From Leucobacter soli (GTDB taxonomy: Bacteria > Actinomycetota > Actinomycetes > Actinomycetales > Microbacteriaceae), in NCBI GenBank assembly GCA_040394175.1, contig JBEBSS010000005.1:32909-96908 (forward strand): a stretch of DNA of 64,000 nucleotides. Direction: 5' to 3'. Positions 49,033 to 58,782 of the stretch are shown here, piece by piece. Numbering within the stretch: position 1 is the first letter of the stretch; every line of letters begins with the position of its first letter. A model generated the notes under the pieces. That model saw nothing but the letters and a program-made list of their open reading frames with translations, was not told where the DNA came from and ran no database searches. The translations under genes and the position numbers were made by a program.

Positions 49033-49048
49033 TCGAATCCATGTTCGA
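49033..49048. promoter_or_regulatory. LexA (SOS) box
   Basis: Minus strand TCGAAC-ATGG-ATTCGA; one mismatch from the actinobacterial TCGAAC-N4-GTTCGA. Confidence 0.65.
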
Positions 49049-54856: not shown

Positions 54857-55426
54857 TCACGGTAACAGTTCGGGCAGGTACTCCGCTGCGAAGTCGAGCA
54901 GTTGTCGGCTCTTGGAGATGACCACACCGTCCCATTCGTCCTGCGTGGTGGAGCTGTCGGCGAAGTCCGACGGAACCTTGAACAGTTGCAGGGGTACGCC
55001 GAATCGTTCGCACACGACCGCGAAGGCGTAGCTCTCCATGTCGACGAGCGTGGCACCGAGCTCCGCGATATGCGCGCGTTGGCTGTCGTCCTGAACGAAG
55101 ACGTCGCCGGTTGCGATCATCGCGGTGTTCGGGGCGAGGATCTGCCCTGCGGGTACGACCTTCGGGGACGGAAGGGAGAAGTCGTGCTGCACCACGCCGT
55201 CGATTTGATAGACGGTGTCGAGTCGCGCCTCGTCGTCGATCGCACCAGCCGTGCCGAGCACGACGACCCGAGAGACCGCGCCGCGACCGGCGCTGAGGAG
55301 CGCTTCGGTCAGCGAGAGCGTCGCATTGATCTTTCCGACTCCGGTCACGAGATGGGGCACTCGGGCCTTGGCGAAGTGCTCGGCCTCGTCGGCATGCGCG
55401 AACACCAGCAACGTCGATCTCGTCAC
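54857..55426 (-). CDS. Nucleoside phosphorylase/nucleosidase, MTA/SAH nucleosidase (Pfs)-like
   Basis: 'VFAH.DEA', 'TGVGKINA', 'GTAG', 'IATGD.FV', 'VDMESYA.A', 'K.PSDFAD'; GTG start at 55426. Confidence 0.85.
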   Translation of the reverse strand: MTRSTLLVFAHADEAEHFAKARVPHLVTGVGKINATLSLTEALLSAGRGAVSRVVVLGTAGAIDDEARLDTVYQIDGVVQHDFSLPSPKVVPAGQILAPNTAMIATGDVFVQDDSQRAHIAELGATLVDMESYAFAVVCERFGVPLQLFKVPSDFADSSTTQDEWDGVVISKSRQLLDFAAEYLPELLP

Positions 55427-55499
55427 CCGGGCACCTCCTGAAGAATGGGAAAACCAGTTCATCCTAGCAATCTCACGGATTGTGGTGTAGAGTAAAAGG

Positions 55500-55719
55500 C
55501 TGAGCGTGCGATTCAGGATGCACCGCCCATCGAAGGGCCGGCCTCCGCTACTCCAATCGACACAGGCTCAGTGACAAAAGTCACCAGGCTCTCCCGAAGT
55601 TTGATCGGGAAGGGCCGGATCGCTACCCGGCATTCATTCGCCCGTTGCTTTCGCGATCCAGAATCGACCTTGCACAGGGTCGTGCAATTGCGCGCGTGTC
55701 GCGCCACGAAAGGACCATC
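55500..55719 (+). ncRNA. Unclassified structured 5' leader RNA (candidate cis-regulatory element)
   Basis: TAGAGT -10 at 55488-55493; CTGAGC/GCTCAG closing stem plus several hairpins and a mutually exclusive hairpin pair near the RBS; no known riboswitch consensus recognised. Confidence 0.45.
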
Positions 55720-55977
55720 ATGACCAACAACATCACGACTATTCACACCCCGTATCACGAGCTGGGCGACGGTTCGCCGCGCGTTCCGGGCTGGGCTCAG
55801 CACCGCAGTGTGTACCGCTCCGCCGGCCGTACTCTCTACCTCGTAGAGACCGACTCGCTCGCAACCGCCCACCGCGACCTCGACACCCTGTCGAATCGCG
55901 GGTGGGAGGTACACATCGAGCGCGCCGGCGACAGCGGTGCAAGCGCGAACATCTCCCTGTCTCGCAAGGCGGCGTAA
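55720..55977 (+). CDS. Small hypothetical protein (85 aa)
   Basis: GAAAGGA RBS before ATG 55720; MTNNITTIHTPY...RTLYLVETD...GWEVHIE; downstream terminator. Confidence 0.75.
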   Translation: MTNNITTIHTPYHELGDGSPRVPGWAQHRSVYRSAGRTLYLVETDSLATAHRDLDTLSNRGWEVHIERAGDSGASANISLSRKAA

Positions 55978-55979
55978 AG

Positions 55980-56001
55980 TTCGCGGCCGTTCGGCCGCGA
56001 A
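55980..56001 (+). terminator. Hairpin after the 85-aa gene
   Basis: 9-bp inverted repeat TTCGCGGCC-GTTC-GGCCGCGAA. Confidence 0.55.
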
Positions 56002-56092
56002 TCGCGTAGCGTGGGGGCGAGAGCAACTTGCTTGAGCGAGGGGGCGTCAGCGCCCCGATCCTCGCCCCGACACCAGCCCGGAGGGTATGCAC

Positions 56093-56584
56093 ATGAGCGA
56101 CGTCGAACTTGCTGAAGTCGAGAGCTTCCAACTCGATCACACGAAGGTGCGCGCACCGTACGTGCGCAGGATCGCGGTCGAGCACGGGCCGAAGGGCGAC
56201 GCGATCACCAACTACGACATACGTCTCGTGCAGCCCAACGAGGGAGAGATCCCGACCGCTGGACTCCACACGATTGAGCACACGATCGCAGGCCTGCTGC
56301 GCACGCGTCTCGGAGGGGTCATCGACATCTCGCCCTTCGGGTGCCGCACCGGCTTCCACCTGATCGTCTGGGGCGAGCCCTCGCCTGCGGAGGTGGCTTC
56401 GGCGATCAAGGCGTCGCTCGAGGACATCGCCGAGCGCATCACCTGGGATGACGTACCCGGCACCGATGCCGTGAGCTGCGGCAACTACCGCGACCACTCA
56501 TTGCACTCAGCACGGGAATGGTGCAGGCTCGTGCTCGAACAGGGCATCAGCGTCGACGCGTTCGATCGTTCCGTGCTGGCATAG
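56093..56584 (+). CDS. luxS: S-ribosylhomocysteine lyase
   Basis: '[15 protein letters not shown]', HTIEH, 'SPFGCRTGF', 'CGNY.DHSL'. Confidence 0.97.
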
Positions 56585-56632: not shown

Positions 56633-57709
56633 TCACCGCGGCGACGCGGTGAGGGCCGGCGGCCGCATCTTCGGTGGGGCAAGCTCGGGCTCGCGCCTGA
56701 ACTGTCTCGCGAGCACCAGTATCAGCGCCGTCGCTCCGAGTACGATCCAGCCCGCAACACCGAGCGGGCTGACGAGGGCGGGATCCAGCGGCGCACCGGC
56801 TGCCCCGACGATCAGGAACAGACCGGCGGAGGCGTTGAGCGCGCCATGTCCGACGACTGCCGGCCAGACCGAACCGGTACGCAGTCGAGTCCATCCGAGC
56901 AGAACGCCCCAGGCGACGCAGCCGCCGACCATCAAAGCGACTCCGGTCCAATCGGTACGGTTGAAGTTGTACCCGAGCAGGATCAGTGGCGAATGCCACA
57001 GCCCCCAGATCACACCGCTCAGCACCAGCGCGGGCCACACTCCGAGCGGACGCAGTGCAGGAAGCAGCCACCCCCGCCAGCCGATCTCCTCGCCGAACGC
57101 GAAGACGGAGTTGATCAGCGCGCCGAAGGGGATCGCGAGCATCTGCAGTGCAACGAGCAGGCCTAGCGCAGGCATCGTCGCCCTCGCGAGCTCGGCGCTC
57201 TCCGCGGGCAACCCCTCGAGTTGCGCGTCGATCACCTGCTGAAAGCCCGAAAAATGCACGAGATCCGGCGTGAGCCATCCGAATGCGGCGGCGACGCCGA
57301 GGCAGGCGATCGTGAGCAGAAGTGGCGCGAAGACCGCGGCAACGGTGAACCACACCACCCGCTTTGCGGGACGGAGCGGCCACATGCCGAGGAACCGAGT
57401 GCGTTCGGTGCGCGGCACCCGCATCAGGAACACCACCACGAGCATTGCCGCCGCCGGCGTGAACATCATGACGCTGGCGAGCGAGGAGAACAGTGCAGCA
57501 TATCCCGGGCGATCCGGATCGATCAGCCACGCAGGCAGCGAGACCGCCCATGCGAGCGCACAGGAGACCCCCACGAAGACTGCGACGGCGGCCCACGGAA
57601 CCCTGGCAGGCTTCCCGCGTTCGGCCACGGTCGATCCTTGCGGCGCCAAGGCTGCGCCCACCCCCTCGTGCGACTGCGAAATCGGCCCGTCGTTCATCTC
57701 GCTGCTCAT
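56633..57709 (-). CDS. CPBP-family (CAAX/Abi) intramembrane metalloprotease
   Basis: 'GEEIGWRG', 'WGLWH', 'H...N'; ATG 57709 overlaps the upstream stop. Confidence 0.93.
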   Translation of the reverse strand: MSSEMNDGPISQSHEGVGAALAPQGSTVAERGKPARVPWAAVAVFVGVSCALAWAVSLPAWLIDPDRPGYAALFSSLASVMMFTPAAAMLVVVFLMRVPRTERTRFLGMWPLRPAKRVVWFTVAAVFAPLLLTIACLGVAAAFGWLTPDLVHFSGFQQVIDAQLEGLPAESAELARATMPALGLLVALQMLAIPFGALINSVFAFGEEIGWRGWLLPALRPLGVWPALVLSGVIWGLWHSPLILLGYNFNRTDWTGVALMVGGCVAWGVLLGWTRLRTGSVWPAVVGHGALNASAGLFLIVGAAGAPLDPALVSPLGVAGWIVLGATALILVLARQFRREPELAPPKMRPPALTASPR

Positions 57710-58782
57710 TCCTGCACTCTCCTTGCCGCGGAGGACAGCATCGCCGCTGCCCGCACTGAGTCGTCTACCGTCACCGCGAACAGCCGGCCGTCCGTCCGCG
57801 TCGCCAGTATCCCTTCGCCGGTTCGCATGACCAGGCCGAACCGTCCCGGTGTCCAGCGCAACCCCCATCCACCGAACTCGGCGAACGGATTGATCTGCGC
57901 TGCCTCGACATGCTGCACATCCGAGGCGGGCAGCCGGAAGGTCGGCCAGCCGATGACCGACCTCGCTTCGAGCCCGCTCGCGTCGATGCGCACCTTGAAC
58001 CATGCGCCCGCGACGCAGAGCACGACGATGAGCACCATCACGGCAACCATCAGCACCCGCGTGATGGCCATGGTCCACAGCTCTTCCGGGGCCACCGGCA
58101 CGAGAAACACCATGACGGTGGCTGCGGTCACGACGACCACTCCCCCGCCGACCACCCAGAGGTACACCTTCGAGGGGCGCACCTCGCCGAACCAGACGGC
58201 CCGTTCGCTGCCCGCAAGCGGAAGCGGATCGGCGGGGTTCTCGGGATCGAGGCGAAGATCGAGTCGGGGTTGCGCGAACCAGGCGGCGATGCTCACGATC
58301 GCCCAGACGCCGAAGCTGATCAGCATCAGCCCGCCGATCGCCGGAGCGAGATGTGCATCCTCCAGATCAAGCTGTACCGCTGCGGAGGCGACGTTGTTGA
58401 TGCTCGTGAACACCGCGAAACCGGCAGTCACGGCTACGAGGAATCGCTGATGCGGCGACCAGAGCCCGGCCGACCGTTTCGGGCTGCTCAGTGAGGCCAT
58501 CGCCCACATCATCAGGGTCAGTCCGTATCCCAGGCCGACGTTGAGCCAGACGTAGGTCGCCGGCGCCCCGAAGCCGTCCGGTCCGCCGACAGCGCCCCAA
58601 TGGGTTGCCGCCGGATCGGGCATGCGCGGCAGCCAGACCGCGAGCACGATCGTCGAAGCCGTGATCACGGCGAGCGGAAGGATGAGCCCGATCCACAGCG
58701 CGATGCGCTTGGCTCGCGCGAGTGCCTCCCGCTGCTCGGCGGTCAGCCGGCGCGGTTCGGGACTCGAGGGGGCTGGGATCAT
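57706..58782 (-). CDS. DUF1648-domain membrane protein (SdpI-like N-terminus)
   Basis: 'LP.MPDP.ATHWG..G.PDGF', C-terminal PH-like 'EFGGWG.R'. Confidence 0.85.
   Translation of the reverse strand: MIPAPSSPEPRRLTAEQREALARAKRIALWIGLILPLAVITASTIVLAVWLPRMPDPAATHWGAVGGPDGFGAPATYVWLNVGLGYGLTLMMWAMASLSSPKRSAGLWSPHQRFLVAVTAGFAVFTSINNVASAAVQLDLEDAHLAPAIGGLMLISFGVWAIVSIAAWFAQPRLDLRLDPENPADPLPLAGSERAVWFGEVRPSKVYLWVVGGGVVVVTAATVMVFLVPVAPEELWTMAITRVLMVAVMVLIVVLCVAGAWFKVRIDASGLEARSVIGWPTFRLPASDVQHVEAAQINPFAEFGGWGLRWTPGRFGLVMRTGEGILATRTDGRLFAVTVDDSVRAAAMLSSAARRVQE

Follow-up and report, generated by a model that had tools for sequence, protein, structure and literature searches.

We have analyzed the 5' leader of a small gene in a 64,000-nucleotide (nt) stretch of the genome of Leucobacter soli (contig JBEBSS010000005.1), hereafter the window, whose coordinates are used throughout. 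The gene encodes a protein of 85 amino acids (aa) and lies between the divergent gene pfs and the gene luxS; luxS is followed by a convergent gene for an Rce1-like intramembrane protease (Table 1). An original prediction, made from the letters of the window alone, had described a structured leader of about 220 nt with a switch-like pair of hairpins upstream of an orphan gene, and had proposed that it was a new riboswitch or other cis-regulatory RNA. All the elements listed in that prediction were found at the coordinates it gave when the sequence was read: the -10 element TAGAGT, the stem CTGAGC (55500-55505)/GCTCAG (55566-55571), GCCC/GGGC, GTGAC-AAAA-GTCAC, GGCTCTCCCGA/TCGGGAAGGGCC (55587-55616), CGACC/GGTCG, TTGCAC/GTGCAA, GAAAGGA and the ATG at 55720. 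For comparison 55 related loci were retrieved, and four more (L002-L004 and L006; L-numbers are locus labels) were added from a genome search. The small gene stands between pfs and luxS in 49 of the 55 loci and beside luxS only in L035 and L052; the gene order of the four added loci is the same as in the 49. The pfs match lies 255-480 nt from the ATG of the small gene in most loci and ~1.6-1.8 kb from it in L030, L033 and L036.

Table 1. Features of the pfs-luxS region of the window, in order along the plus strand.
Feature	Position	Strand	Sequence and remarks
pfs (PNP_UDP_1 / MTA-SAH-nucleosidase-like), open reading frame (ORF)	54857-55462	minus	divergent from the small gene
Small-gene promoter	55465-55493	plus	-35-like TAGCAA 55465-55470; 17-nt spacer; -10 TAGAGT 55488-55493
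D1, long irregular 5'-terminal hairpin	55497-55574	plus	covariance models, compensatory changes, single-species folds
D1 helix P1	55499-55572	plus	GCUGAGC 55499-55505 / GCUCAGU 55566-55572
D1 helix P2	55506-55563	plus	GUGCGAUU 55506-55513 / AAUCGACAC 55555-55563
D1 helix P2b	55516-55546	plus	GGA 55516-55518 / UCC 55544-55546
D1 hairpin P3	55525-55538	plus	GCCC 55525-55528, loop AUCGAA, GGGC 55535-55538
D1 conserved 3'-side bulge	55547-55554	plus	GCUACUCC (CUACUCC)
Linker hairpin	55571-55584	plus	GUGAC-AAAA-GUCAC; variable region
Hairpin P4a	55587-55616	plus	GGCUCUCCCGA / UCGGGAAGGGCC; RNAalifold
P4 stem	55617-55659	plus	GGAUCGC 55617-55623 / GCGAUCC 55653-55659
Hairpin inside P4	55627-55644	plus	CCGGC 55627-55631, loop AUUCAUUC, GCCCG 55640-55644
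P5 hairpin	55665-55682	plus	CGACC/GGUCG; loop with invariant CACA
Alternative hairpin	55670-55687	plus	UUGCAC/GUGCAA; formable in the window, not conserved
P6 hairpin	55690-55704	plus	GCGCG-CGUGU-CGCGC; directly 5' of the Shine-Dalgarno sequence
Shine-Dalgarno sequence and start codon	55708-55722	plus	GAAAGGA 55708-55714; ATG 55720-55722
85-aa small protein gene	55720-55977	plus	
Terminator-like hairpin	55980-56001	plus	UUCGCGGCC-GUUC-GGCCGCGAA; just 3' of the stop codon, without a U tract; minimum free energy fold
luxS	56087-56584	plus	
Rce1-like (CPBP) intramembrane protease gene	56633-58078	minus	convergent with luxS, after it

The leader begins with a long irregular hairpin, D1. Individual minimum free energy (MFE) folds of 44 species mostly show an identical D1 architecture, in which P1 and P2 are followed by a 3'-side internal loop with (C)UACUCC, of which ACUCC is unpaired, and then by P2b and the apical hairpin P3. 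The loop of P3 is ACCGAA or AUCGAA in the window's clade and carries insertions of up to >30 nt in other relatives. MAFFT alignment combined with RNAalifold (14 species) recovered P1 alone. Because the inner D1 helices shift register in the MAFFT alignment, covariance models were adopted instead, seeded from six sequences with a hand-written structure and then iterated twice (R1-R3). These models score the D1 of the window at 64-76 bits and match sequences outside their seeds, always directly after the -10 element: the first model found 10 such members, and the third matched 26 loci at E<0.05, all immediately 3' of the -10. Compensatory change is seen in 14 of 20 D1 pairs in an alignment of 23 sequences, with 81% of cells paired, and an earlier alignment of 16 sequences gave similar covariation (13-14 of 20 pairs over both alignments). 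None of 500 shuffles equalled this covariation, and structures slid by 1-3 columns scored 0.03-0.11, as compared with 0.27. The D1 helices with comparative support are P1, the hairpin GCCC/GGGC and two more. The outer stem CTGAGC/GCTCAG of the original prediction is retained as P1. Of the two sub-hairpins placed within it, GCCC/GGGC covaries and GTGC/GCAC is replaced by the pairing of GUGCGAUU with AAUCGACAC, a helix whose equivalents in relatives are GCGAU/AUCGC, GUGAU/AUCAC, GCGAA/UUCGC and GUUCA/UGAAC. Folded alone, D1 has a z-score of -2.4 in the window, the average for the 44 species being -2.0; these values are biased, since the ends of D1 had been picked so that they pair. The segment CAGGCUC supplies the 3' strand of P1 (55564-55570) and, repeated at 55585-55591, the 5' strand of the conserved hairpin that comes next; the duplication, kept in the closest relatives only, permits a weaker alternative pairing with the 5' GAGC.

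A variable linker separates D1 from the 3' half of the leader. The GUGAC-AAAA-GUCAC hairpin of this linker occurs in the window, L002 and L014 and is missing from L004; in L013, L016 and L003 it is either duplicated or replaced. The hairpin P4a was predicted by RNAalifold on the 8 closest relatives, with several pairs altered on both sides. The P4 stem is paired in 95% of cells (15 species) and shows compensatory change in 3 pairs, for example GACCGG/CCGGUC in L027. Enclosed by P4 is a further hairpin that covaries among relatives (CCGGC/GCCGG, GGGCA/UGCCC, GACAG/CUGUC, CCGGCG/CGCCGG) and keeps a UUYAYU loop (AUUCAYUC or UUCAYUC). It competes with the previously listed GCCGG/CCGGC pairing, which is not kept; covariation favours the pairing of CCGGC with downstream sequence. 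P5 takes the forms GACUC/GAGUC, GGCC/GGCC, UGCC/GGCA and CGAUCCA/UGGGUCG in relatives, and in L012 and L014 its loop holds an insertion of 10 nt. A hairpin at the position of P6 is found in nearly all relatives and covaries as well (GGCGC/GCGCC, GCACGC/GCGUGC, CCGCACC/GGUGCGG). On close relatives RNAalifold supports the hairpin at 55587-55616, GGAUCGC/GCGAUCC, CGACC/GGUCG and the hairpin before the Shine-Dalgarno (SD) sequence. The 3' half of the leader is conserved more strongly than the coding sequence among the eight closest relatives; in L004 the protein is 61% identical and the leader blocks are nonetheless identical over long stretches. Most of the predicted hairpins are kept as RNA structure in a comparison of about 55 Leucobacter species, and the conserved helices appear to extend from D1 to the SD, in agreement with the predicted structured leader of about 220 nt.

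The two hairpins proposed as a mutually exclusive pair fared differently. CGACC/GGTCG covaries, as P5, and TTGCAC/GTGCAA is not conserved: CAC/GUG alone is invariant, its extension is paired in roughly half of 10 close relatives, and the clade of L022, L023, L028 and L029 has no counterpart. With the alternative hairpin not conserved and the SD predicted to be open by default, a switch-like mechanism is not supported. The SD GAAAGGA and the ATG (score 5 of 6) recur in essentially all related loci. Masking of the SD by the CUACUCC or CUUUCG segments was considered and set aside, as such pairing could involve no more than 3-6 bp and is not conserved, and as the SD is predicted to be open. A peptide encoded within the leader was likewise rejected, since a comparison of the window with L002, L013 and L014 shows no conservation of the ATGs in D1. 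A longer ORF starting at TTG 55645 was dismissed because the homology and the SD begin at ATG 55720 and relatives have in-frame stops upstream.

The leader motif is new and absent from Rfam 15. At gathering thresholds only a tRNA passes in the 64-kb window, and only tRNAs pass across 20 related loci. Between 55300 and 56200 no leader family was found at E<=10, the best E-values (3-8) belonging to unrelated models of small RNAs (sRNAs). The families without a match include SAM-I/IV/VI, SAH, SAM-SAH, c-di-AMP, TPP, cobalamin, yybP, guanidine, T-box and 6C. A literature search found nothing on Leucobacter leaders or riboswitches. The empty Rfam search and the conservation of the leader uphold two points of the original prediction, namely the lack of a match to known riboswitch families and the proposal of a candidate new cis-regulatory RNA.

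D1 is present in one copy in the window's own genome. The second D1 model detects 20 of 86 Leucobacter genomes, 19 with one match and the fragmented G003 with two weak matches, and in a sample of 300 genomes of the family the D1 model gave one marginal chance match, within a coding region. D1 does not recur before several functionally related genes and is seen solely in front of the small gene. Outside Leucobacter the small gene is rare, being found in four other genera (201-genome family sample). There too it is preceded by a long region that has a stem at its 5' end, and the 1.5 kb fetched to either side of the gene contain neither luxS nor pfs. The wider gene context was read for three of these genera; near the small gene lie an acyl-CoA dehydrogenase and an ammonium transporter in one, a racemase, an AI-2E transporter and an Rce1-like protease in another, and TauE and a GntR regulator in the third. 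By eye the upstream region is D1-like in at least one of the four genera; GAUCGCGAACUACUCC (CUACUCC) can be recognised in L010 and an ACCGAAG hairpin loop in L011. As judged from these gene contexts, the leader travels with the small gene rather than with luxS or pfs. The Rce1-like protease also lies near the small gene in another genus (L070 6083-7309, in the order small gene, AI-2E-family transporter, protease), and there may be a weak conserved linkage between the two.

In L. soli and its relatives luxS probably has its own promoter, as suggested by the strong hairpin after the small gene, by a -10-like motif and by extra DNA in two loci. The motif, ATCGCRTASCGT / ATCGCGTAGCGT with the -10-like TAGCGT (56007-56012), precedes luxS and is conserved in 17 of 56 loci, and ~1.6-1.7 kb separate the small gene from luxS in L025 and L027. 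The original prediction had singled out S-adenosylmethionine (SAM), S-adenosylhomocysteine (SAH), S-ribosylhomocysteine (SRH) and adenine derivatives as ligands from the pfs/luxS context. This suggestion loses its basis, since a hairpin and a promoter-like motif precede luxS and the leader accompanies the small gene in genera without luxS or pfs nearby. The luxS leader itself, of ~70 nt, is highly structured (GGGGGCGAG...CUCGCCCC, with an inner GGGGCG-UCAG-CGCCCC); from Rfam it has just one weak match, to DUF3800-IV (E=3.2), which lies on the opposite strand. The likely start of luxS is the second ATG (56093), with GGAGGG (56080-56085) 7 nt upstream and homologue alignments from residue 3. Similarly, pfs probably starts at GTG 55426-55424, with an AGGAGG SD (55434-55439, plus-strand coordinates), and not at ATG 55462; the alignments of relatives to pfs start at about residue 14 of the long ORF.

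The promoter of the small gene is conserved across the genus. The pattern CTAGCR, 17-21 nt, TAnnnT matched upstream of the small gene in 49 of 59 scanned loci, and a looser pattern matched in six more; the ten loci beyond the strict pattern were placed by the looser one or omitted. The -10 lies 193-408 nt from the ATG in 56 distinct Leucobacter loci, and its spacing to GAGC (55502-55505 in the window) is fixed at 8 nt across loci. From the conserved promoter and this fixed spacing we infer that transcription starts at ~55498-55500, where the original prediction had also placed it, so that the RNA would open directly with the outer stem of D1. The conserved CTAG core (55461-55470) seems to be common to two back-to-back promoters, those of the small gene and of pfs; on the plus strand it would form the -35 (TAGCAA) of the small gene, and read on the minus strand it offers a -10-like TAGGAT (55466-55461) for pfs, which is TAGTGT or TAGACT in relatives. 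A PafBC-type -26 element was also sought in the promoter, where the match is poor by eye.

In 28 of 56 distinct Leucobacter loci (L030-L043, L047-L050, L052-L053 and L056-L063) the promoter spacer holds a LexA-type box, TCGAAnnnnTGTTCTA, whose final TA begins the -10. These 28 loci match at least 10 of the 12 positions of TCGAAnnnnTGTTCGA at a fixed offset; the window matches 5 of 12, and there is no LexA box in its promoter spacer (55471-55487). The box upstream of recA in the genome of the window, TCGAAGATGTGTTCGA (C34:36), is a near match to TCGAAnnnnTGTTCTA, and perfect copies of TCGAAnnnnTGTTCGA stand at three other intergenic-looking sites, including position 49033 of the window. The consensus of the actinobacterial SOS box is tCGAAC-N4-GNNCGa, a box of 16 bp (PMC9380542). 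From these promoter comparisons the small gene is very probably SOS-controlled in half of the genus. By the same comparison, the window's clade has lost the LexA box and kept the leader.

The label orphan does not apply to the 85-aa protein. It has 119 homologues in a large protein collection, many of them named Leucobacter hypothetical proteins, and a protein profile finds the gene in 82 of 86 Leucobacter species genomes, including all 65 of high quality, almost always once. The small gene is a core gene of Leucobacter; in a 400-genome sample of the order the protein profile found no homologue. Sixteen diverse members share 32 invariant columns, with the motifs TPYHxLG, P.WA.HRSVYR (WAxHRSVYR), GRTLY.VET (GRTLYLVET), DL..L and GW.V. 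No relative was found in Pfam, NCBIfam, PHROG or, by profile search, PDB. The sequence contains no hydrophobic or membrane segment, and the AlphaFold model is an alpha/beta fold (beta-beta-alpha-beta-beta, predicted local distance difference test score 72) for which Foldseek gave no significant structural match. A GIY-YIG-like reading of SVYR...LYLVET was unsupported by any search.

On balance, we lean towards the view that the leader is a genuine, lineage-specific, cis-acting structured 5' untranslated region (UTR), with the docking of a factor and stabilisation of the mRNA as its favoured roles; for any particular factor we are much less confident. Transcription from the genus-conserved promoter would yield an RNA that starts with the outer stem of D1 and displays the pyrimidine-rich bulge CUACUCC. 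After the variable linker there would follow a second module, made up of P4 with its UUCAYUC-loop internal hairpin, P5, P6 and a single-stranded ribosome-binding site. The leader would act post-transcriptionally, in cis, on the small gene only. Its 5'-terminal stem may shield the mRNA against 5'-end-dependent decay; we favour stabilisation since the stem would run from the first transcribed bases, as it does in 5'-end stabilisers. A trans-acting factor that determines how well the mRNA is translated or how long it lasts could dock on the two conserved pyrimidine-rich loops; this factor would more likely be a protein than a metabolite, and might be the small protein itself.

Several observations weigh against this view. 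The start site, and hence the existence of a long leader, rests on the conservation of the promoter. The 231-nt leader as a whole has an MFE of -85.3 kcal/mol, which 16 of 200 shuffles equalled (z = -1.65; the opposite strand gives z = -1.0). The alignments behind the pair counts were fitted to models, which favours structure; independent single-sequence folds and insertions confined to loops point the same way. The D1 of more distant Leucobacter clades was recognised by eye only, without a model match. No U-tract terminator is present on the plus strand of the leader, and an expression platform was not found, that is, no conserved exclusive pairing by which the SD would be masked or a terminator formed. 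By partition function the SD is predicted to be 0.57 unpaired, compared with 0.38 for the rest of the leader (means over 54 leaders), and 0.66 in the window; as the SD is more open than the rest, the leader is not expected to be an off-by-default trap for it. Finally, the small protein has no recognisable RNA-binding fold, and the proposed factor is hypothetical.

Other explanations must be weighed against the same evidence. A new riboswitch for a product of the activated-methyl cycle (SAM, SAH, SRH, autoinducer 2 or its precursor 4,5-dihydroxy-2,3-pentanedione (AI-2/DPD), or adenine) that controls the small gene together with luxS would account for a long leader that matches no known family and that, like riboswitch aptamers in general, combines covarying helices (D1, P4, its enclosed hairpin and P5) with conserved unpaired nucleotides (the CUACUCC bulge and the P3 loop). 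It would also fit the position between pfs and luxS, kept in all 49 Leucobacter loci that have the three genes, and the AI-2E-family transporter that follows the small gene in one other genus. We nevertheless regard it as unlikely: the leader occurs once per genome and only before the small gene, it consists of hairpins in a row and has neither a junction of several helices nor a conserved pseudoknot, it shows no conserved alternative pairing, and its SD is predicted to be accessible by default. Joint control with luxS is further at odds with the hairpin after the small gene, with the -10-like motif and the gap in front of luxS described above, and with the genera in which the small gene has a long leader but neither luxS nor pfs in the 1.5 kb on either side. 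The opposite extreme, that the leader has no function as RNA and that signals in the DNA (divergent promoters, operators) are accompanied by chance hairpins of a GC-rich spacer, could draw on the unimpressive z-score of the whole leader and on the constraint that the LexA box of relatives and the shared CTAG core place on the promoter region. It is very improbable in the light of the compensatory changes, which affect four helices of D1 and three further downstream and greatly exceed those of the shuffled and slid controls, of the variable insertions that sit exactly in hairpin loops (6 to >30 nt in P3, 10 nt in P5), and of conservation that reaches 200 nt past the promoter.

The LexA-type boxes raise the possibility that the leader serves as a safety catch for an SOS-type gene with a product that does harm when leaked, like the long folded 5' UTRs of tisB and dinQ, with an mRNA that is poorly translated or short-lived until processed, and that the window's clade lost LexA control and retained the catch. 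The boxes in half of the promoters resemble that of recA and fit the actinobacterial consensus (PMC9380542), the protein is small and of unassigned function, and the leader is long, structured and opened by a 5'-terminal stem. Yet type I toxin-antitoxin systems join a hydrophobic toxin to an antisense RNA, and here the protein, judged from its sequence, has no hydrophobic or membrane segment and is modelled as an alpha/beta fold, while neither an antisense RNA nor a conserved internal promoter was seen in the sequence. Together with an SD predicted to be accessible, a presence in every high-quality genome that is atypical of toxin modules, and a window that itself lacks the LexA box, this makes such a catch quite unlikely. 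D1, with or without the linker hairpins, might instead be a separate trans-acting sRNA with C/U-rich loops, the small gene being expressed from a promoter of its own or by read-through. Gram-positive sRNAs use pyrimidine-rich loops to pair with SD regions, and D1, with its conserved loops of this kind, is a compact, self-contained and stable 5' module with hairpins after it. However, no U-tract terminator follows D1, no conserved promoter-like motif was seen by eye between D1 and the SD, and the 3' module is conserved at least as well as D1 and always reaches the SD; a separate sRNA is accordingly something we hold to be very unlikely.

The leader is a well-supported structured RNA motif, missing from existing catalogues, that goes with a small core protein of Leucobacter; the way the gene is regulated, by DNA damage and by whatever the leader may sense, offers a hint to the role of that protein. 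Neither Hfq nor CsrA is known from high-GC actinobacteria, a group in which the leader could serve as a compact model of RNA control specific to one gene. Its wider importance is limited by its confinement to one genus and a single target gene. A more far-reaching reading, that the leader is a new class of regulatory RNA (a riboswitch for some signal, or an operator bound by the small protein in autoregulation) that gates a genus-wide protein linked to DNA damage, seems doubtful to us. If true, LexA at the promoter and the RNA in the leader would be two layers of control on one gene, and the window's clade would have the RNA layer only.

Known systems resemble the leader in different respects. 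With the SOS type I toxin mRNAs (tisB/istR-1, dinQ/agrB) it has in common a small ORF, a long structured leader and, for half the relatives, a LexA box in the promoter; unlike them it belongs to a core gene whose 85-aa product looks soluble, its SD is predicted to be open, and the promoter in the window has no LexA box. The SAM/SAH-family riboswitches (SAM-I, SAM-IV, SAM-VI, SAH, SAM-SAH) are also structured 5' UTRs beside activated-methyl-cycle genes, as here in an actinobacterium, but the leader matches none of their models at E<=10, has no expression platform and is associated with the small gene, not with luxS or pfs. The 5' stabiliser stem-loops (the ompA 5' UTR, Bacillus subtilis aprE, ermC) are similar in that a stem stands at the first bases of a long UTR; those need just a terminal hairpin, whereas >200 nt with several conserved loops are kept here. 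The leader differs from gene-specific protein-binding leaders, such as the thrS operator and those of ribosomal-protein genes, in that no RNA-binding fold is known for the small protein, the SD lies outside the conserved structure, and binding is hypothetical. It is nevertheless like them in its single copy, always before the same gene, and in its irregular covarying hairpins with fixed internal- and apical-loop bases and no metabolite-type junction. With its chain of hairpins, two similar pyrimidine-rich loops, one copy and one gene, the leader thus resembles protein-binding leaders more than metabolite aptamers.

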